Position numbers and translations under genes: made by a program. Shown here piece by piece: positions 18,354 through 39,984 of a stretch of 64,000 bases of DNA. Below the pieces are notes generated by a model. That model was not told where the DNA came from. It did not search any database and was given only the letters and a program-made list of their open reading frames with translations. Numbering within the stretch: the first letter of the stretch is position 1; each line of letters begins with the position of its first letter. Origin of the DNA: Trichodesmium erythraeum IMS101 (GTDB lineage Bacteria > Cyanobacteriota > Cyanobacteriia > Cyanobacteriales > Microcoleaceae); NCBI RefSeq assembly GCF_000014265.1, contig NC_008312.1, forward strand, positions 2,936,607 through 3,000,606. Reading direction: 5' to 3'.

Positions 18354-19229
18354 ATGGCTCTAACAAAAACACAACTAATTGGTTTAAAAGCAAATCATTT
18401 TCGGCATCCCTTAGATCTAGAGGCAACAAATGCTTTGAAGCAACTTCCTGGTATAGACCTCTTAGTTAGACAGTTGTTAAGTCCATTAGGTGAGCAATTT
18501 TTCTATATGGAAAATATTGCTTCCAGTGTTCTCGTCAGTGAAGCACAACTGCCAAATTTACACAAAACACTATTAGACGCTTGTCAAGCACTTGACATAG
18601 AACCACCCCAATTATATATTCGTCAAAATCCTGTACCTAATGCTTATACATTTGCTATGCGAGGGAAGCAACCTTTTATTGTTGTTCATACATCTCTAAT
18701 AGAGTTGCTCAACTTAGAGGAGATCCAAGCAGTATTAGGTCATGAGCTAGGACATCTTAAATGTGAGCATGGAGTATATCTTACCCTAGGTAACTTAATT
18801 GTACTTGCTGCTGGACAAATTTCGACATGGGGTGGCATAATAGCCCAAAGCTTACAAAGCAAAATACTAGAATGGCTAAGATGTGCCGAATTTAGTTGTG
18901 ATCGCGCAGCCCTACTGGCCACACAAAATTCTCAAGTAGTTGTATCAGCTTTGATGAAGTTAGCTGGTGGTTCTCCAACAATATCACCTCAACTTAATGT
19001 AGATGCTTTTTTAGCTCAGGCAAGAGCTTATAATGAACTTAGTAATACAGAAGTTGGTGAAGTATTAAAGGAAGTCCAAACGGCTCAACTAACTCATCCT
19101 CTACCTGTATTGAGGGCCAAAGAAATTGATATGTGGGCAAGTAGCAAAAAATATCAGGATATATTGCAAAATTTAGCAAAAGATGTGTATAATAATCAAA
19201 GGATTAAGGGCGGGTGGCGAAATTGGTAG
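18354..19229 (+). CDS. M48-family zinc metallopeptidase (HtpX/Ste24-like)
   Basis: HEXXH zinc motif in IQAVLGHELGHLKCEHG with a downstream Glu; about 290 aa as for bacterial M48 peptidases. The stop codon TAG (19227-19229) lies inside the downstream tRNA-Leu. Confidence 0.8.
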   Translation: MALTKTQLIGLKANHFRHPLDLEATNALKQLPGIDLLVRQLLSPLGEQFFYMENIASSVLVSEAQLPNLHKTLLDACQALDIEPPQLYIRQNPVPNAYTFAMRGKQPFIVVHTSLIELLNLEEIQAVLGHELGHLKCEHGVYLTLGNLIVLAAGQISTWGGIIAQSLQSKILEWLRCAEFSCDRAALLATQNSQVVVSALMKLAGGSPTISPQLNVDAFLAQARAYNELSNTEVGEVLKEVQTAQLTHPLPVLRAKEIDMWASSKKYQDILQNLAKDVYNNQRIKGGWRNW

Positions 19230-19289
19230 ACGCACCACACTCAAAATGTGGCGACTTCGGTCGTGAGAGTTCGAGTCTCTCTCCGCCCA
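19208..19289 (+). tRNA. tRNA-Leu (anticodon CAA), type II with long variable arm
   Basis: Acceptor stem gggcggg/tccgccc with one G-U pair and discriminator A. D-arm is gcgaAATTGGTAGAcgc, anticodon stem ccaca/tgtgg with loop ctCAAaa, variable arm cgacttcggtcgt, T-arm gagagTTCGAGTctctc. Folded by hand. Confidence 0.85.
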
Positions 19290-29544: not shown

Positions 29545-30183
29545 ATGAATATCAAACGGGCATTGAAAAGTATAACTAAGGGAGTTTCGACCTTTGCTGG
29601 ACCTCTGGGGGCTCCTTTTGAAGCATTGCTATATTTCGTTGAGGATAAACAAACACAAGAGCGTGAGGCTCAACTAGATGCAATGATCTTTGAGGTACAA
29701 AGTTTGAACCGTGAAACTCTTGAGGAGATATTTCAAGCTAGAGAGGAAATTAAGGAATTGAGGGCACAATTTATTTTGGCAATGGAAATTTGTTTTTCTA
29801 TTTTAGCTGAAAACAGGAAATTGTTGTTTAGTCCAGATTTAGAACAAAATCTTCCTTTTTTTATTGAACCATATAAGGAACGGTTGGAAGCAAGTGGGTT
29901 GATTACTAATGATGTTTTGGCTGATGCACTTTATCATTGTTATGAAAAAGATGCTCGACTTTTTTTAGCACATATTTCTGCTGATTTTCCTGTGGGAGAA
30001 CTTCGTAGTTATGAGGCTTTACCTGTTATTATTTCTGATTTTTTAACAAGATTTTCTGGTCAGGGATTAAATCAACAAGCTAAAATATTTAAGACTTTAA
30101 GTAAGAAAAATCCAGGTAGTAGACCTTTAAGGGTAAAAAGCTTGATGCTTCAAGAACAAGTGATTAATCAAATAGGGAAGTGA
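29545..30183 (+). CDS. Hypothetical protein (212 aa); its C-terminal module is paralogous to the N-terminal module of the downstream 1204-aa protein
   Basis: ELRSYEALPVIISDFLTRFSGQGLNQQAKIFKTL versus DIRKLTLSDPLLVIISDFFNQCNGLNKNELYKFFRVL in ORF 30194..33808. Same strand; 10-bp gap to the next start. Confidence 0.5.
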   Translation: MNIKRALKSITKGVSTFAGPLGAPFEALLYFVEDKQTQEREAQLDAMIFEVQSLNRETLEEIFQAREEIKELRAQFILAMEICFSILAENRKLLFSPDLEQNLPFFIEPYKERLEASGLITNDVLADALYHCYEKDARLFLAHISADFPVGELRSYEALPVIISDFLTRFSGQGLNQQAKIFKTLSKKNPGSRPLRVKSLMLQEQVINQIGK

Positions 30184-30193
30184 GAAAATATTT

Positions 30194-33100
30194 ATGCCTA
30201 GTGAGTTTGAAAAGGTTCTAGACGAGATTAGAAAACGAAGTAGTAAATATGAAGATATTGGAGATGTTAAGAGGGAAATTATTAATGCGCTTTCACAAAG
30301 ATATAAAACACAGGAACGTTTGTTTACACATTATGTTCTAGAAAAAGGGGGATTTGATATTCGTAAATTAACTTTAAGTGACCCTCTGCTAGTAATTATA
30401 TCTGATTTTTTTAATCAGTGTAATGGTCTAAACAAAAACGAATTATATAAATTTTTTAGAGTGTTATATGATGAAAATAAAGGTATTAGTTTGCTAAAAG
30501 AAATTAGAGATACACTTGTACAATTTAAACATCAAAGTACTGATACTCCTACATATACACCATCACCATACATATCAGTTATTACTTCAGAAGCAATAGG
30601 CTTAGTAGAAGCAAAATATGGACAGTCTCTAGAACAGGGAAAAAACTTTGCTAAAAAAGTTGATTGTAATAATTTTCAGGATGTACAAGCTTTTTTTAAT
30701 AATGGGGGACAAGCTGGTAAACAGCTTGCTATTTTGGAGCCAGGAACCTATTACATTAACCCCGAAATATTCACTATTCGTACAGTTCCTATTATTAGGA
30801 TTCTTCAAGGAGAAATAGGACTGGTAATAGCCAATGAGGGGACTTTTAAGTCTGATGAACAAACGTTAGGTAGAGTGGTGGAATGTGATAACTTTCAGGA
30901 TGCTGAAGCATTTCTGAAAAATGGAGGACAAAAAGGTAAGCAACTTGCTATTTTGACTGACGGTGACTATAAAATTAACACTGATTTCTTTAGCGTAATT
31001 ACTACTACTAATGCCTATAAATATAATGAAAATCCAAATAATTTAAAGGTTTATAAAATCGACAAAGATAAAATTGGTATTTTAACTACGATGGTTGGGA
31101 AAATTCTCCCTAAAGGTGAAATTGCTGGACCAATAATTGAAGGACACGATAATTATCAAAATGCACAAAAATTCCTAGATTTAGGAGGATATAAAGGATT
31201 GCAAGAAGAAGTTCTCCAAGAAGGAGCCTGGAGTCTAAATCCTTGGTTTGTTGAAGTTGAGCAGGTACCACTAACTAGAATTGAGCAAGAAGAGGTGGGA
31301 GTTGTTATATCTTTTGTTGGAAAAGAATATGACAAAAATTATGATCAACAGCCCATTTTTTATGGTGCAGAAAAGTCTCTATACCAATTAGTTCCAAAAG
31401 GGTACAAAGGAGTTCAAAAAGAACCTCTTACTGCTGGTCAATATGCAATTAATACCAGAGTAAAAACGGTCAAATTAGTGCCAACTACCCAAATTATACT
31501 GAATTGGTCAGATCAGAAAAAACATCCCTTAAATTATGACTATGAACTGAAACAAATGAAGCTAATTTCTAGAGACCATTTTGAAATTTTTGTTCAGTTT
31601 ACCCAAATTATTCGTATTGCTGCTGAGAATGCTCCTAAGATGATTTGTATGGTTGGATATTATACAGGGGAAGACAAAATATATGTTACTGATGATTCTG
31701 GGCAAGTTGTTAAGAAATATGCAGTTATTAGAAATTTAGTTTCTCGTGTATTAACAAAAGTTGTTTATAGTCATTTTCAACAAGCTGCTACTGGTAAAAC
31801 GGCAATACAGTTTCTAAACACAAGAGGTGACTCTCAAAAGGAGGCCGAAAATTATATAAAAACACTTCTTGAAATGATTGGTGTTGAAGGATGTGGCACT
31901 TTTATGGTTGATACAGTTAATCTACCTCTAGTAGTTGATTCTTACTTACAAGAGAAACAAAAGCAAGAGGCAAGAGAAGCTCAAGCAAAAGCTGCACCTG
32001 AACGGCTTCTTGAACCTGAATTTGTTGAGAATCCTGAACAACGGCTTCCTGAACCTGAATTTGTTGAGAATCCTGAAAACCGTTGTCCCATTATCCTCCT
32101 ACTGGATACATCTTACTCAATGTCAGGAGAAGCTATTACTGAATTAAATCAAGGAGTGAAAATATTTCAGGCAAGTGTAAAGGAAGATGAACTGGCTTCC
32201 TTAAGAGTAGAAATAGCTGTCATTACTTTTAACAGTGAAATTGAAGTAGTTCAAGATTTTGTTACTGTAGATAAATTTATTCCCAAAACATTAGAAGCAT
32301 CAGGAGTAACGCACATGGGAAAAGCTATTGAAAAAGCCCTAGAATTATTAGAAAAGCGAAAACAAGACTACAAAAATAGCGATATTCAATACTATCGACC
32401 CTGGATCTTTCTAATTACTGATGGGCAACCTACTGATACTTGGCAAGATGCAGCAAAAAAAATAGAAGAAGCTGAAACTAATAGAAAATTACTTTTTTTT
32501 GCTGTTGGGGTAAGAGATGCAGATATGGAGACATTAAGTGAAATTTCTGTATGCCCTCCTAAAAAACTCAACGGCTTAGATTTTCAATCTTTGTTTAAAT
32601 GGCTAAGTTTTTCACTTCAGCAAGTTTCAGTTAGCAAGATAGGAGAAAAGAATAGACTTCCTCCAACGAATGCATGGGAAGAAATAACTAGTAAAAATCA
32701 AAATACTAAACAGACTCAACAAACTCAACAAAAGACAACAATTCCTAATTCTGACCCTAATCCTGAACCAATTATCCCTATCTTAGTTTTAGATAGAGAT
32801 ATTTTTAAAGATCAACGAATTAAGAGTAATTCGGAGGGAGAAATTTGGATAACTCAAAAATATCGCTACCGAAAGAAATACCTAATAAAAATTTATTATG
32901 AAGTTACACCAGCAAGGATAAAAAAGTTAGAAGTAATGGTAGCTTATAAACCGAAAAATTTTCATGGTTCTCAACAAGCGTGGGCTTGGCCTGAGTATTT
33001 ACTAGCAGATAAAACAGGAAAAATTATCGGCTTTGTCATGGAATTTATTGAAGATAGTAAACTGCTATTTAATATTTATAATCCTCAGCGTCGTAAGCAA

Positions 33101-33808
33101 ATAAATAGTCAACTCCACTGGTCAGTAGACTGGCTTTTTCTTCACCATACTGCTAAAAATATTGCTACTATTATTCAGTCTCTTCATAGTCAGGATTATG
33201 TTATTGGAGATATGAAGCCACAAAATATTCTAGTTAACCGATATGCTTCTGCTTCAATAATTAATACAGACTCATTTCAAGTTCGCCATCCTCAGACAAA
33301 AGAAATCTATCATTGTTTAGTTGGTTCCGAAGAATTTACCCCTCCTGAACTATTAGAAAAAGAATTAGCAAAAATTGTTCAAACTCCTACCCATGATAAC
33401 TTTAGATTAGCCCTTATTATCTATCATTTATTATTTGGAGGACATCCCTTTAAAGGAAGGTGGATAGGAACAGAAGAGCCACCCAAAATTGATGAACTCA
33501 TCCGACTAGGTTTCTGGTGCTATGCTCCCAATAGTAAAATTCTACCAGGACCGAGAACTATTCCCCTTGAAATAGTTCACCCCAAAATTCAAAAATGCTT
33601 CCAAAAATGCTTCAACGATGGACACTATCATCCAGAAAAACGACCCACTCCTCAGAACTGGGTTGACGCTTTAGAGAGTGCCATTAATGATTTAGTACAG
33701 TGTAAAAGAGTTGATACCCATTGGTATAGTAAAACTTATGGCAAATGCTATTGGTGCGAAAGAGAAGAAAAATTAGAGGTTGACATATTTTCTGATTCCA
33801 AAACATAA
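30194..33808 (+). CDS. Multidomain signalling protein: N-terminal module + 4 tandem ~80-aa beta-repeats and SPFH/flotillin-like region + vWA domain (MIDAS) + Hanks-type Ser/Thr kinase domain (non-RD) + Cys/His cluster
   Basis: Repeats: (C/E)(N/D)NFQD..AF...GGQ.GKQLAIL..G.Y.IN..(I/F)F four times, then a flotillin-like block HFEIFVQFTQIIRIAAENAPKMICMVGYYTGEDK...FLNTRGDSQKEAENYIKTLLE and a Glu/Ala-rich coil. vWA: ILLLDTSYSMSGEAI (DxSxS) ...ITDGQPTD. Kinase: VAYKP (beta3 Lys), IGDMKPQNILV (catalytic loop), DSF (for DFG), FTPPE (APE). C-terminus KCFQKCFNDGHYH...CKRVDTHWYSKTYGKCYWC. Confidence 0.8.
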   Translation: MPSEFEKVLDEIRKRSSKYEDIGDVKREIINALSQRYKTQERLFTHYVLEKGGFDIRKLTLSDPLLVIISDFFNQCNGLNKNELYKFFRVLYDENKGISLLKEIRDTLVQFKHQSTDTPTYTPSPYISVITSEAIGLVEAKYGQSLEQGKNFAKKVDCNNFQDVQAFFNNGGQAGKQLAILEPGTYYINPEIFTIRTVPIIRILQGEIGLVIANEGTFKSDEQTLGRVVECDNFQDAEAFLKNGGQKGKQLAILTDGDYKINTDFFSVITTTNAYKYNENPNNLKVYKIDKDKIGILTTMVGKILPKGEIAGPIIEGHDNYQNAQKFLDLGGYKGLQEEVLQEGAWSLNPWFVEVEQVPLTRIEQEEVGVVISFVGKEYDKNYDQQPIFYGAEKSLYQLVPKGYKGVQKEPLTAGQYAINTRVKTVKLVPTTQIILNWSDQKKHPLNYDYELKQMKLISRDHFEIFVQFTQIIRIAAENAPKMICMVGYYTGEDKIYVTDDSGQVVKKYAVIRNLVSRVLTKVVYSHFQQAATGKTAIQFLNTRGDSQKEAENYIKTLLEMIGVEGCGTFMVDTVNLPLVVDSYLQEKQKQEAREAQAKAAPERLLEPEFVENPEQRLPEPEFVENPENRCPIILLLDTSYSMSGEAITELNQGVKIFQASVKEDELASLRVEIAVITFNSEIEVVQDFVTVDKFIPKTLEASGVTHMGKAIEKALELLEKRKQDYKNSDIQYYRPWIFLITDGQPTDTWQDAAKKIEEAETNRKLLFFAVGVRDADMETLSEISVCPPKKLNGLDFQSLFKWLSFSLQQVSVSKIGEKNRLPPTNAWEEITSKNQNTKQTQQTQQKTTIPNSDPNPEPIIPILVLDRDIFKDQRIKSNSEGEIWITQKYRYRKKYLIKIYYEVTPARIKKLEVMVAYKPKNFHGSQQAWAWPEYLLADKTGKIIGFVMEFIEDSKLLFNIYNPQRRKQINSQLHWSVDWLFLHHTAKNIATIIQSLHSQDYVIGDMKPQNILVNRYASASIINTDSFQVRHPQTKEIYHCLVGSEEFTPPELLEKELAKIVQTPTHDNFRLALIIYHLLFGGHPFKGRWIGTEEPPKIDELIRLGFWCYAPNSKILPGPRTIPLEIVHPKIQKCFQKCFNDGHYHPEKRPTPQNWVDALESAINDLVQCKRVDTHWYSKTYGKCYWCEREEKLEVDIFSDSKT

Positions 33809-34231
33809 CATTCCCTTGAAAAATTGCTTCAAAATAAAAAGTGGAAAGAAGCTGATTTAGAAACTAAATATATTATGCTAAAGTTTGCAGGAAGAATTGA
33901 TCAAGGATGGTTAGATAAATCATCCCTAGAAAATTTCCCGACTAAAGTTATTCTTCAAATAGATCAACTTTGGCGACAATATTCTGATGAACGTTTTGGC
34001 TTTGCTACACAGAAGCGTATCTATTTAGAAACTGGTAATAAATTAGAACAAATAAATTGGGAAACCTATAATCATTTTGGTGAAAAAGTTGGTTGGCGAG
34101 AAGGGGGAATGTGGAAAAATTACTTCGATCTAGAATTTTCTCTGAATTCACCAGAAGGTCATCTTCCATTCTGTTGTGCTGGTTTTAATGTTTGCTTCAT
34201 TGCTCATCTAGCCCTTCTGAAAGACTTATGA
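33809..34231 (+). CDS. GUN4-like porphyrin-binding domain ORF, in the same frame as and separated by a single TAA from the upstream kinase gene
   Basis: LLQNKKWKEADLETKYIMLKFAGR...ILQIDQLWRQYSDERFGFATQKRIY...FGEKVGWREGGMWKNY...LNSPEGHLP matches the GUN4 domain consensus (W.eAD.eT...IDqLW..S.GrFGF..Q..I...VGW...W....AP.GHLP). 30194 and 33824 are both frame 2, with only the TAA at 33806-33808 between them. Confidence 0.65.
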   Translation, partial: HSLEKLLQNKKWKEADLETKYIMLKFAGRIDQGWLDKSSLENFPTKVILQIDQLWRQYSDERFGFATQKRIYLETGNKLEQINWETYNHFGEKVGWREGGMWKNYFDLEFSLNSPEGHLPFCCAGFNVCFIAHLALLKDL

Positions 34232-34648
34232 TCATCTACATGAATCTTTGATTTTCTCTAAATAATCAGTTCTATTCCTGCTTCACCTCGGCAACCTCAG
34301 CGTTCTCTCAAAATCTATAATTTTCTATATAAACTTTCAATTATAGTTATCGTAGTGGAAAATCTTCATATCTTAGGAAGAATATCATATCCGAATCATC
34401 AGTGATCAAAAAGTTTTTGTTTGTAGTAAAGCGATCGCCTTATTCGCCGTAAGTGCTAATTCTCTCCTCCTGCTTTCTGCCTCCCGCCTTACCTCCTCCA
34501 AAGTGTAAGTATTGAACCTAGAGAGCGAATGCCATGTAGAGGGCGAATGCTAGAAAACCCCCACTAGATATGGGGTTTGTGTGTAAGCCCTATAAATTAA
34601 CTACTTATTTGACTCTTAACCACAGACAAATAGTAATAGAAGACTTAA

Positions 34649-34840
34649 ATGTATCGGGAATCTCAAACTGTTGATTTGTGTTGCAGTCTTTACTGTTATC
34701 AGAACTTGTTTTCAATTGCAAACACTGCAATTAAAGCTCGTGAGCGATACTTGAATGCAGCCTTAAATTTAGCTACAGTTAGTCAGTTCATTCCGTGTGC
34801 CTGTGAACTAGATCGCACCGACATTGCCAGAATAAAGTAG
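34649..34840 (+). pseudogene. Possible TnpB C-terminal fragment (Zn-finger/RuvC-III relic)
   Basis: DLCCSLYCYQNLFSIANTAIKARERYLNAALNLA resembles C..C...(A/H)D.NAAiNI of TnpB. 63 aa only, with no upstream TnpB body. Confidence 0.3.
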
Positions 34841-34992
34841 GAACAAAAATAGATCAAAAATCAGATAATGATAGATTTTATGAATTTTTTGTAGATTTCT
34901 GGGAACGGAATGAACTTGCCAAAATTGTGGTGCACACCATGACCGCCAGACACTAAATTAAAATTATAGCGCTAGTCTTTCGGTAATTTTAG

Positions 34993-35484
34993 CTAGCCAC
35001 CATAATTCCAGCCTGTATTTTCTAATAACAGAGGATCTCCCTCACGATGCACACCTGCTGCAATTACTTCTCCTACATACACAGTATGATCCCCTTTTTC
35101 GACAGCACCCATAACTCTACATTCAACATAGCCAAGAGTATCAGAAATAATTGGACAACCAGTTTCCCCCAAATAAAATTCTACCTCTTCAAATTTATTT
35201 CCCACACGACGTTGAGGTTTGAAAAACTGTTGAGCTAAATCTTTTTGCTCTGCTCCTAAGAAACTAAGGGAAAATACTCCACTAGTCTTAATCATGGTAT
35301 GGGATATAGAAGATTTATTAACACAGTTAACAATTAGGGGAGGCTTAAAAGATGCTTGCATTACCCAACTAGCTGTAAAGCCGTTTACTTCATCCCCATC
35401 TTTAACACCACAAATGTATAATCCATGGGGAATTTTACGCAGTATAGTTTTTTTTGCCTGTTCGTCTAGCAAAGTTTTACCCAC
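34993..35484 (-). CDS. Flavin reductase-like (FMN-binding split-barrel) protein
   Basis: LYICGVKDGDEVNGFTASWVMQASFKPPLIVNCVNK...GDHTVYVGEVIAAG is typical of the NADH:flavin oxidoreductase/HpaC-like family; 163 aa. Confidence 0.8.
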   Translation of the reverse strand: MGKTLLDEQAKKTILRKIPHGLYICGVKDGDEVNGFTASWVMQASFKPPLIVNCVNKSSISHTMIKTSGVFSLSFLGAEQKDLAQQFFKPQRRVGNKFEEVEFYLGETGCPIISDTLGYVECRVMGAVEKGDHTVYVGEVIAAGVHREGDPLLLENTGWNYGG

Positions 35485-35964
35485 TATGTACTAAGAATTT
35501 AACATTTTTTATTTTACCTGAAGTGATTAAAATTCATCTTACACTAAACATTTTCAGCGCTTACCCATACTTCACATAAGGACCCCATTTTTAGGAATGA
35601 ATCGCATTTGTCCTCACGGTCATTACATAGCCGTGGGTAAGTCTTAATATTAGGATTTTAAAATTAAACTAATATCATACCTTAAAGTCTATTATCAACA
35701 AGAGCCATAAACTAGAGCTTATTGATAGTTGCCAACTTTAAAAAATAGATAACAAGTTTTGTGGTATAATAAAAAATTTTATTAACTAATTAAATATTTT
35801 TAATTACACATTTTTGAGTTATAAACTCTAAATATATTGTGGCACTATAGTTTTGATAATTCCTATATAGTTGATTTACACTTATGTATTTGTGAGTCAG
35901 GCAGAAATTTCGTACTCATAAAATAAAAACCGCTATAAATTCTAACCACAACAATAAATATCCT

Positions 35965-37788
35965 ATGTCTTCCCTAAACAAATTGATCCAAAAATTCACT
36001 CATCACAAAAATTGGCCCTTCAGATTAATAATATTAACAATTGCTTCAATAGCGATCGCCTGCAACAACATCAAAACCCCCACCACAACCTCAGAAACAC
36101 TCACCGCTCCCGAAACAGATACTTTAGTTTGGGCTAGATATAAAGACTCCGACACCCTTGACCCCCACAAAACAACATCACCCTTATCCAGACAAATAAT
36201 AGACCAAATCTACGATACCCTGCTTACTTTCGACGACCAAGGCAAAATTCAACCTAACCTAGCCAAAGAATGGTCAGTCAACGACAATGGCCAAGAATAT
36301 ACCTTCAAACTCAACGAAAACATCAAATGCCACGACGGCAAAACCTTTAACGCTAATGCCGTAAAATTTACCATAGACAGAGCCATAGACCCCGAAACAG
36401 AAAATAACATCAAAGACAGTTGGGGGCCAATAGAAACAGTAGAAGTCGTAGACGATCTGACAGTTAAAGTAAAAATGACTGAACCCTTTAGCCCTTTTCC
36501 TCGTTTTCTAGCCGACCCTTACTCTAGCATGATTTGTCCCTCAGCCATAAAAACTTACAACAACAAATTTGGTATAGACGGAGTCATAGGTACAGGTCCT
36601 TTTGAATTTGTAGAATGGACTCAAGGGGAACAACTTGTACTGAAAGCTAACCCAAACTACAAAAATTATGGGAGACCCGTAGAAAATTCTGGAACTCCTT
36701 ATATCAAGAAATTAGTAATAAAAACCATTCCGGAAATAGAAGCTCGTTTAGCAGGTATTAATTCTGGAAAAATTCATTTAACTGAACCTCCAATAGCAGA
36801 AATTTCTAATCTAAAGCAAGACTCTAATTTAAAACTTTATACTGCTAAAAATACTGGGCAAATAGTATTTTTAGAATTCGTTACTTCTCGAGCGCCTTTC
36901 AATAAAAAAAAGGCAAGACAAGCAATAGCTTATGGAATAGATGTGAAAAAAGCAACAGAAGAAATCTTAGCAAATTTAGCTAAACCTGCAGAATGTCCCA
37001 TCGTCAATGTTATGTTCCCTAATGATGGTAAACTTTGTTCAGAGTTTAGTATTAAACCAGACCCAGAAAAGGCAAAAACCCTACTAAAAGAACTTGGTTA
37101 TAGTAAAGATAAACCATTAGAAGTAACTCTCCTAACTTGGAAAGGAGGAAACCGTGAAAAAATCCTCGAAAATTTTCAAACTCAACTAAAAGTTGTGGGA
37201 ATAAAAGCCAATTTAGAGACAATGGATATTGGCAGTCTGAATGCCAGAATAAAACAGGAGAATAGTCAAGCAGAAGGCAGAGGTGTTATTGATATGATGG
37301 GATGGTCTTGGTACGACCCAGATTTTCTTTATAAATTGTGGCATTCTCCCGGTTGGATGGGAGGTTATCACAGTGATGAACTTGATAAATTACTAACAGA
37401 AATGCGCACTGCAACTAATTCTAAAGAACAGCAAGAAAAAGTTGTGGCAGTTCAAAAATATTTGCTTAATAATGCTGTGATGGTGCCACTTTATAGTCCT
37501 GGTTGGATGTGGAATTATGTTAGTAGTTTGAATGTAGAAGGTTTTAATATTGGAGCTTTTAATCGACCTTTATTTAATGATATAAAATTATCGACTACTA
37601 CGGAAAAAAAAGAAGGATTTCAGTCTCCTGCAAGTTCTGAAAAAGAAGTAGTAGAGGAGAAAATTAATTCAGAAAAAAATATCAAAAATAAAGATTCTGT
37701 CTCTGAAAAAGAAGTAATAGAAGAGGAAGTTAATTCAGAAAAAAATATCAAAAATAAAGATTCTGTTGCTTCTCCAGAAAATGAATAG
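35965..37788 (+). CDS. ABC transporter substrate-binding lipoprotein, family 5 (peptide/nickel/opine-binding, DppA/OppA-like)
   Basis: Lipobox IASIAIAC. The SBP_bac_5 core is LVWARYKDSDTLDPHKTTSPLSRQIIDQIYDTLLTFDDQGKIQPNLAKEWSVNDNGQEYTFKLNENIKCHDGKTFNANAV. The C-terminal low-complexity tail has a duplicated SEKEV(V/I)EE.(I/V)NSEKNIKNKDSV. Confidence 0.85.
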   Translation: MSSLNKLIQKFTHHKNWPFRLIILTIASIAIACNNIKTPTTTSETLTAPETDTLVWARYKDSDTLDPHKTTSPLSRQIIDQIYDTLLTFDDQGKIQPNLAKEWSVNDNGQEYTFKLNENIKCHDGKTFNANAVKFTIDRAIDPETENNIKDSWGPIETVEVVDDLTVKVKMTEPFSPFPRFLADPYSSMICPSAIKTYNNKFGIDGVIGTGPFEFVEWTQGEQLVLKANPNYKNYGRPVENSGTPYIKKLVIKTIPEIEARLAGINSGKIHLTEPPIAEISNLKQDSNLKLYTAKNTGQIVFLEFVTSRAPFNKKKARQAIAYGIDVKKATEEILANLAKPAECPIVNVMFPNDGKLCSEFSIKPDPEKAKTLLKELGYSKDKPLEVTLLTWKGGNREKILENFQTQLKVVGIKANLETMDIGSLNARIKQENSQAEGRGVIDMMGWSWYDPDFLYKLWHSPGWMGGYHSDELDKLLTEMRTATNSKEQQEKVVAVQKYLLNNAVMVPLYSPGWMWNYVSSLNVEGFNIGAFNRPLFNDIKLSTTTEKKEGFQSPASSEKEVVEEKINSEKNIKNKDSVSEKEVIEEEVNSEKNIKNKDSVASPENE

Positions 37789-39015: not shown

Positions 39016-39984
<969 letters not shown>

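Follow-up and report, generated by a model that had tools for sequence, protein, structure and literature searches.

A segregating nonsense allele at the kinase-GUN4 junction of a probably decaying or remodelled TerY-P-like locus in Trichodesmium

Introduction

The yegL, yegK and yegI genes of Escherichia coli are an example of a TerY-P triad. In the passage that PMC11090510 devotes to it, citing Anantharaman et al. 2012, the triad is made up of a VWA (von Willebrand factor type A) protein resembling TerY, a PP2C phosphatase and a Ser/Thr kinase with a C-terminal zinc ribbon. Fusions of a kinase to a GUN4 domain (PF00069 with PF05419) were first noted in Nostoc PCC 7120 (PMC1262709), and they have been discussed as tetrapyrrole-sensing modules (PMC7159879). 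Here we describe a locus of Trichodesmium erythraeum IMS101 that can be compared with both of these systems. The window analysed is a stretch of 64,000 nucleotides (nt; NC_008312.1, positions 2,936,607 to 3,000,606, forward strand), and the element in question is a TAA codon at 33806-33808 of the window, which lies between a kinase reading frame and a GUN4 domain.

The locus shares with the known kinase-GUN4 fusions the order of kinase, C-terminal Cys/His cluster and GUN4 domain, and it is 94% identical to P0121, a continuous protein of Trichodesmium, and 54-67% identical to the fusions of other genera. It differs from them in that the GUN4 domain is severed by a stop codon, the Asp of the kinase DFG motif is replaced by Asn and the kinase N-terminus is replaced by an SPFH-VWA fusion. 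The likeness to the TerY-P triad is seen in L001, an intact Trichodesmium locus, and in L105, a relative, both of which have VWA (234-236 amino acids), PP2C (259-261 amino acids) and kinase genes in order on one strand; however, the kinase here has an additional GUN4 domain, and in IMS101 the PP2C gene is deleted and the VWA is fused to the kinase. A third comparison is with the nonsense-split genes (pseudogenes) of IMS101, a genome that is only about 60% protein-coding (PMC4143802). As in those genes, one point mutation leaves two adjacent ORFs (open reading frames) in the same frame that are annotated separately, but the allele described here is common to wild populations on two species backgrounds and coexists there with the intact allele.

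Results

The 1204-amino-acid ORF at 30194..33808 on the + strand is terminated by the TAA at 33806-33808, and the sequence at 33809..34231 continues in the frame of this ORF (30194 and 33824 are both 2 mod 3), the next in-frame stop being the TGA at 34229-34231 with none between. The initial annotation of the window had placed the codon and the shared frame correctly. The features at the junction are the following.

33800..33832, + strand: codons of the first GUN4-domain helix (K T stop H S L E K L L Q), equivalent to residues 430-440 of the intact orthologue, with the stop as the third codon
33806..33808, + strand: TAA stop, nonsense allele of the TAC (Tyr432) codon of the kinase-GUN4 gene
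33809..34231, + strand: GUN4 domain coding sequence, severed from the kinase, with an ORF intact to the TGA at 34229-34231 (PF05419, E 2.4e-35)
33824..34231, + strand: ORF of 135 amino acids, 'GUN4-like' (GenBank ABG51173.1 / WP_011611546.1, Tery_1918), starting at a TTG that is Leu438 of the intact protein

When the 140 codons after the stop were compared with the Pfam GUN4 profile (PF05419), residues 2-122 matched profile positions 10-125 of 141, with a score of 122 bits against a cutoff of 29.2. The homology therefore begins at the second codon past the TAA, ahead of any start codon. Only three sense codons (CAT TCC CTT, encoding H S L) separate the TAA from the E of EKLLQ and not the five originally counted there; five (HSLEK) is the number that precedes the first possible start, TTG 33824. 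No other start comes ahead of the first ATG, which lies in ...YIMLK..., deeper in the GUN4 domain. AlphaFold2 modelling of P0121 with alignment A1 as input (mean pLDDT, predicted local distance difference test, 79.9) gives residues 430-440 (KTYHSLEKLLQ; block pLDDT 73-86) as the first GUN4 helix. The stop is thus predicted to sit within this helix and not in an inter-domain linker, and a TTG-initiated product starting at Leu438 would lose nearly all of it. The two-part layout first proposed for the locus, a kinase ORF followed by a GUN4 domain, is right in that the adjacency is real; it has to be amended in that the stop lies inside the first GUN4 helix and that what was called the 'kinase ORF' is a chimera in which SPFH, VWA and kinase parts are fused. 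By exact-sequence look-up the 1204-amino-acid product is ABG51172.1 / WP_011611545.1, which is annotated 'von Willebrand factor, type A', and no mention of Tery_1917 or Tery_1918 was found in the papers searched.

When the kinase and GUN4 region, read through the stop, was used as a search query, it retrieved P0121, a continuous protein of 572 amino acids with 94% identity over 100% of the query, from which the GUN4 part of the window differs at 2 of 140 residues. Across the junction P0121 reads ...DIFSDSKT-Y-HSLEKLLQNKKW... Its contig, L001, has TAC (Tyr) in place of the TAA of the window, and its downstream flank is 99.5% identical to the window. The adjacency of kinase and GUN4 in IMS101 is not due to chance, because a contig with this flank reads straight through the junction as TAC/Tyr to give a single 572-amino-acid protein. 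The same holds more widely in the species: L001, L103 and L104, all with TAC and with downstream flanks at least 99.5% identical to the window, encode continuous kinase-GUN4 proteins of 545-572 amino acids preceded by a PP2C gene, which in L001 is additionally preceded by a stand-alone VWA gene. In other genera (Caldora, Symploca, Iningainema, Stigonema, Rivularia, Nostoc, Microcystis and others) the GUN4-bearing orthologues, at 54-67% identity, are all continuous. Continuous kinase-GUN4 proteins are represented by P0121 and P0123-P0134 and by loci L004-L010 and L029.

The Tyr (Y432 of P0121) is at least 90% conserved in a 15-sequence family alignment. Because IMS101-like contigs carry TAC, the orthologues of other genera are continuous and the Tyr is conserved to this degree, the TAA is a single C to A transversion, TAC to TAA (Tyr to stop), in a gene that normally encodes one kinase-GUN4 protein. 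The alignment of orthologues across this point, which had been proposed as a check, hence shows continuity both within the species and in every other genus that yielded an orthologue. The earlier suggestion of a recent nonsense mutation splitting a fusion gene is borne out as regards the substitution, whereas the word 'recent' needs qualifying, since the allele is present on many environmental contigs and backgrounds.

It had also been suggested that the TAA might be a sequencing error. An error of sequencing or assembly in the IMS101 genome, for which nothing was found in favour, is refuted, as the exact 1204-amino-acid product ending at the stop, followed by the 135-amino-acid ORF, is found on at least 23 contigs, among them contigs of GCA_018457135.1, of an ENA metagenome and of separate runs in the Logan assemblies, and the TAA occurs in 20 further loci that are not identical to the window. 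Both IMS101 products are also listed for T. erythraeum GBRTRLIN201 (GCA_018457135.1).

Altogether 26 loci were aligned at the junction, with TAA in 21 (the window and 20 others) and TAC in five (L001, L003, L004, L103 and L104). This ratio is biased, as L084-L099 were fetched through GUN4-only ORFs; the kinase-protein-derived loci L002, L100, L101 and L102 are likewise TAA, as are L085-L087, the contigs of which hold the stop-terminated kinases P0260, P0258 and P0265. Among the cluster members listed, eight distinct Tyr-allele proteins stand against ten that are stop-terminated. A junction pattern scan of JGI metagenome contigs returned one locus only (L003, TAC), from which no unbiased allele frequency can be taken. 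The TAA loci come from many samples, Tara Oceans included.

The two alleles are found on the same backgrounds. Among sequences with IMS101-like flanks (at least 99.5% identical), L001, L103 and L104 are TAC, and the window, L002, L100 and L101 are TAA; L002 is the contig of P0122 (416 amino acids), a protein that ends ...DIFSDSKT as in the window, and it has an IMS101-like flank of 99.7% identity and has kept the PP2C gene and the kinase N-terminus. Where flanks are only 88-93% identical (T. thiebautii-type), L004 has TAC and L084 has TAA. L004 is from MAG_R02, which has been assigned to T. thiebautii (PMC9189399). A third context, with a Peptidase_M28 gene downstream (L094-L096), is TAA. We conclude from these comparisons that the TAA is a segregating polymorphism in wild Trichodesmium, neither private to IMS101 nor acquired in culture. 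As a separate observation, the L094-L096 copy consists of the kinase 3' end and GUN4 with a divergent GUN4 C-terminus, followed downstream by Peptidase_M28 and EamA genes; it could be from another species or a second locus.

The informative-site matrix is strongly mosaic. L086 (TAA) equals L004 (TAC) at every informative site over about 1.1 kb except this base, and the kinase-GUN4 gene (window 32698-34231) is 96-97% identical between T. erythraeum-type and T. thiebautii-type (L004, L084) whereas the flank (34232-36500) is 88-93% identical. The higher identity of the gene, together with the mosaic haplotypes, suggests gene flow between the two species types at this locus, and recombination spreading one mutation appears to be the most economical reading of the TAA distribution, with chimeric assembly of metagenome contigs as a caveat. 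Recurrent, independent C to A changes on each background were also considered and judged less likely than recombination, as it is always the same base that is changed and the haplotypes are visibly mosaic.

These data also bear on the possibility that the loss is selected, that is, that the stop is a polymorphism held at intermediate frequency across the species of Trichodesmium because it switches off or uncouples the GUN4 sensor in a costly module of the conflict or immunity type, to advantage in some conditions. In its fullest form this would make the TAA a trans-species nonsense polymorphism kept by selection in T. erythraeum and T. thiebautii, possibly moved by recombination, with which populations would turn on and off, or uncouple, the putative tetrapyrrole-sensing arm of a conflict or signalling module of the TerY-P type, for which low-level reinitiation or readthrough might still supply some GUN4. 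The presence of the same TAA in T. erythraeum-type, T. thiebautii-type and L094-type contexts is what would be expected of it, as are the mosaic haplotypes with L086 and L004 differing at this base alone, the excess of gene over flank identity between the species types, and the ratios of nonsynonymous to synonymous substitution (dN/dS, below) of about 1 or more with replacements in patches, which are compatible with diversifying selection. However, neutral, recombination-driven spread of a loss-of-function allele in a dispensable locus fits the same data, the allele frequencies are biased by the loci fetched through GUN4-only ORFs, and metagenome contigs may be chimeric. We regard both the general idea, which overlaps with the reading that we prefer, and its trans-species form as rather improbable.

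The stop is not the only difference between IMS101 and the intact gene. The remaining features of the chimeric ORF are as follows.

30194..33808, + strand: chimeric ORF of 1204 amino acids, with an N-terminal module without a Pfam match, SPFH/Band_7 at residues 363-600, VWA at 633-789, Pkinase at 945-1155 (Pfam) and the Cys/His cluster
32001..32077, + strand: tandem duplication of 39 nt (LEPEFVENPEQR / LPEPEFVENPENR), two copies with a 97% match, at the SPFH/VWA join
32046..32698, + strand: VWA segment, orthologous to a stand-alone TerY/YegL-like VWA gene of 234 amino acids and 97.9% identical to L001 2254-2906
32687..32698, + strand: in-frame deletion junction ACTAGT/AAAAAT, at which 1,128 bp of L001 (2907-4034) are missing
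32698..33805, + strand: kinase domain with C-terminal Cys/His cluster; catalytic loop GDMKPQN at 33206-33226, cluster at 33701-33757
32825..32842, + strand: Gly-rich-loop region SNSEGE, SSGEGE in relatives (invariant Gly to Ser)
33263..33265, + strand: AAT (Asn) at the position equivalent to the DFG Asp (D251N); GAT in L001 and Asp in 14 of 14 non-Trichodesmium relatives

The gene order in the intact locus L001 is VWA (234 amino acids), PP2C (259 amino acids) and kinase-GUN4. Locus L105 (GCA_013332635.1, JAAUYK010147882.1), from a 67%-identical relative, has on one strand an SPFH-VWA gene (1345 amino acids), a 147-amino-acid gene, a caspase-HATPase gene, genes of 368 and 270 amino acids, and then VWA, PP2C and DUF4278-kinase-GUN4; this eight-gene cluster looks like the complete set, of which the Trichodesmium loci have differing subsets or inversions. 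The VWA of the window (PF00092, E 6.5e-14) has a MIDAS (metal ion-dependent adhesion site) motif, DTSYS, at 32105-32119, and the kinase domain matches PF00069 (E 5.2e-11) over residues 945-1155 of the 1204-amino-acid ORF. In the NCBIfam models only generic kinase, VWA and PP2C matches were obtained, all far below cutoff, and JGI names the relatives of the window kinase 'helix-hairpin-helix protein with protein kinase domain'.

Relative to L001, the 1,128-bp deletion has taken the VWA stop codon, the whole of the PP2C gene and approximately the first 60 codons of the kinase, and because it is in frame, it has fused VWA to kinase. L001, L002, L103 and L105 all have the PP2C gene (PF13672), which is absent from the window. 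The deletion is common to the window, L097 and L100, all of which are TAA, and L097 has in addition a 1-nt insertion, causing a frameshift, 35 nt ahead of the stop. A second, independent deletion is seen in L101 and L102, also TAA. This one removes 1,438 bp relative to L002 (L101 1-120; L102 2560-2700; breakpoint equivalent to window 33055), with loss of PP2C and the kinase N-lobe (about 165 codons), and it leaves a kinase fragment of 254 amino acids adjoining the caspase-HATPase gene. At the other end of the VWA segment, homology to the stand-alone VWA gene of L001 starts at 32046, and the 39-nt duplication at the SPFH/VWA join may mark another recombination junction. In the low-complexity linker ahead of the kinase (window 32700-32750; L001 3950-4060; L002 4445-4545), the number of NTK(Q/H)TQQTQ repeat units varies among haplotypes.

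Lesions were also sought at 100 positions that are invariant in 14 non-Trichodesmium relatives. The window departs from these at three: G107S in the Gly-rich loop, D251N and A546S, the last of which is common to all Trichodesmium. D251 aligns with the metal-binding DFG aspartate of PDK1, and replacement of Asp by Asn at the DFG position of kinases abolishes catalysis, so that D251N would be a substitution of the kinase-dead type. It is polymorphic among Trichodesmium haplotypes, being found in nine TAA loci as against none of the five TAC loci. The cluster residues C397, H403, C412 and C415 do not vary within the family, and the window has all four at 33701-33757, where the zinc-ribbon fold and metal binding are putative.

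We also assessed whether the GUN4 part might still be produced in the presence of the stop. It had been proposed that the TAA could be a regulated readthrough site, in which case UAA 33806-33808 would be decoded at a regulated frequency to give both kinase-only and kinase-GUN4 proteins. Circumstantial points in its favour are a downstream frame that is open and well conserved and a C directly after the stop (TAA-C), a context in which bacterial termination is weaker. On the other hand UAA, which both release factors recognise, is less leaky than the other stops. A recoding site would be expected to be conserved, whereas this stop is polymorphic, TAA or TAC on both T. erythraeum-type and T. thiebautii-type backgrounds, with a sense codon at the site in all other genera. 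For the 121 nt around the stop, the minimum free energy of folding was -17.7 kcal/mol and the mean for shuffled sequence was -16.05 (z -0.55), so that no RNA structure above shuffles, including downstream of the stop, was seen. Likewise, tRNA and Rfam scans of the 64-kb window found no suppressor tRNA, the sole tRNA being Leu-CAA, and these scans covered the window alone. Further disabling lesions are carried by TAA haplotypes as well. Regulated readthrough lacks positive support, and we consider it very improbable.

Another way in which GUN4 could be made is by termination-reinitiation at TTG 33824, 15 nt past the stop, with the gene having undergone a functional fission into two working proteins and GUN4 acting in trans. 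This possibility draws on the intact GUN4 ORF in all 21 TAA loci, on the 15-nt spacing from stop to TTG that is the same in every one of them, on the allele being common on T. erythraeum-type and T. thiebautii-type backgrounds, and on the listing of the GUN4 part as a separate gene in GenBank. However, the spacer and the TTG are simply the codons for H S L E K L in the intact allele, and their conservation therefore adds no evidence of its own. By eye, no Shine-Dalgarno-like purine-rich run is present in the 15-nt spacer, and a scan for promoter-like and terminator signals at the junction gave nothing above shuffles. The TTG product would be without almost all of the first GUN4 helix, the dN/dS of GUN4 among TAA haplotypes is about 1 or higher, and the partner protein is itself degenerating, with PP2C, the kinase N-lobe or the DFG Asp lost in TAA haplotypes. 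Separate kinase and GUN4 genes with a conserved spacer and their own ribosome binding site or start had been named as the finding that would argue against a nonsense mutation. Split relatives do exist and share the spacer, but all have the identical TAA and so represent the same allele, without a Shine-Dalgarno-like sequence and with the TTG of Leu438 as their only start. We therefore think functional fission unlikely.

By the Nei-Gojobori method, pairwise dN/dS came to about 1 (range 0.5-3.5) for the kinase as well as for GUN4, whichever alleles were paired (TAA-TAA, TAA-TAC or TAC-TAC), and to 0.5-0.6 against the more distant L003. These values have no power to separate a gene that is still constrained from one that is decaying, because only 0-3 synonymous differences are found per close pair.

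A further comparison is with PD-T4-6, a single-gene Ser/Thr-kinase anti-phage system. Among the PADLOC models, PDLC04062 is matched by the GUN4 part over positions 313-424 of its 450 (E 1.5e-34), while the matches of the window kinase to the PD-T4-6 and mad6 models are weak (E 1e-8 to 1e-3) and reflect generic kinase motifs. The PADLOC match is to one sub-model built from kinase-GUN4 proteins and is not evidence of phage defence by this locus. Nothing seen at the locus connects it with tellurite resistance or with restriction systems.

Several features of the surrounding sequence may be recorded here. The C-terminal part of an upstream ORF of 212 amino acids (29545-30183) resembles the N-terminal module of the 1204-amino-acid ORF (30194-30640), with 32% identity over 69 amino acids (E 8e-8) and no Pfam match in either; the shared module may be a domain of the adaptor or effector-associated type repeated in neighbouring genes. 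Downstream by about 5 kb is hetR, an ORF of 310 amino acids at 39016-39948 on the - strand that is syntenic with the Peptidase_S48/HetR_C gene of L001, and between GUN4 and hetR are a Flavin_Reduct gene (34993-35484, - strand) and an SBP_bac_5 gene (35965-37788, + strand). A tRNA-Leu with anticodon CAA (19208-19289, + strand) is the sole tRNA or Rfam match in the 64-kb window.

Discussion

We consider it likely, from comparison of these sequences, that the TAA is a segregating loss-of-fusion nonsense allele in a decaying or remodelled, recombining TerY-P-like (VWA/PP2C/kinase) locus. The intact gene encodes a YegI-like Ser/Thr kinase, the Cys/His cluster and a C-terminal GUN4 domain in one protein, and this kinase is the third gene product of a TerY-P-like module of VWA, PP2C phosphatase and kinase, a module that in relatives forms the end of a larger cluster, which also encodes an SPFH-VWA protein and a caspase-HATPase protein. 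Ribosomes in IMS101 would terminate at UAA 33806-33808 and produce an SPFH-VWA-kinase protein without the GUN4 domain, the remnant of which would be either untranslated or present as a low-level product from TTG 33824 that is without the first helix. Kinase-GUN4 function would thereby be lost, and GUN4 is presumably not expressed. Recombination would have put the TAA allele on many haplotype backgrounds, and in wild populations of both T. erythraeum type and T. thiebautii type it segregates with intact TAC. The stop in IMS101 is one of several lesions, together with the deletion of PP2C, the in-frame fusion of VWA to kinase, the DFG Asp to Asn change and the Gly to Ser change in the Gly-rich loop, and it is because of this accumulation that the locus is best read as a decaying or remodelled remnant. 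The TerY-P-like module of IMS101 is probably non-functional.

Some observations weigh against a loss-of-fusion allele in a decaying locus. The GUN4 ORF is intact in 21 of 21 TAA loci; this is, however, uninformative and would not contradict decay, because too little time has passed (dS about 0.01-0.03) for the ORF to be expected to have decayed, and we give it little weight. The dN/dS values do not single out the TAA lineages as relaxed. A Tyr-allele protein, P0245, has both the VWA-kinase fusion and D251N. Most of the haplotypes are from metagenome assemblies, which are possibly chimeric, and for a plainly deleterious allele it is unusual to be frequent and on two species backgrounds. The feature is thus of an ordinary kind, and its population distribution is somewhat unusual.

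For annotation, these results mean that ABG51172.1 and ABG51173.1 (Tery_1918) would be better described as remnants of a rearranged VWA/PP2C/kinase-GUN4 module than as two ordinary genes. The IMS101 locus is without the PP2C gene, the intact DFG aspartate and the kinase-GUN4 linkage, all of which are retained by some wild Trichodesmium, and on account of these lesions IMS101 would not be a suitable wild type for experiments on kinase-GUN4 signalling or on the module. More generally, the locus offers a compact case of structural variants and mosaic haplotypes common to T. erythraeum-type and T. thiebautii-type populations, and as such it could serve as a gauge of recombination and gene flow between the two.

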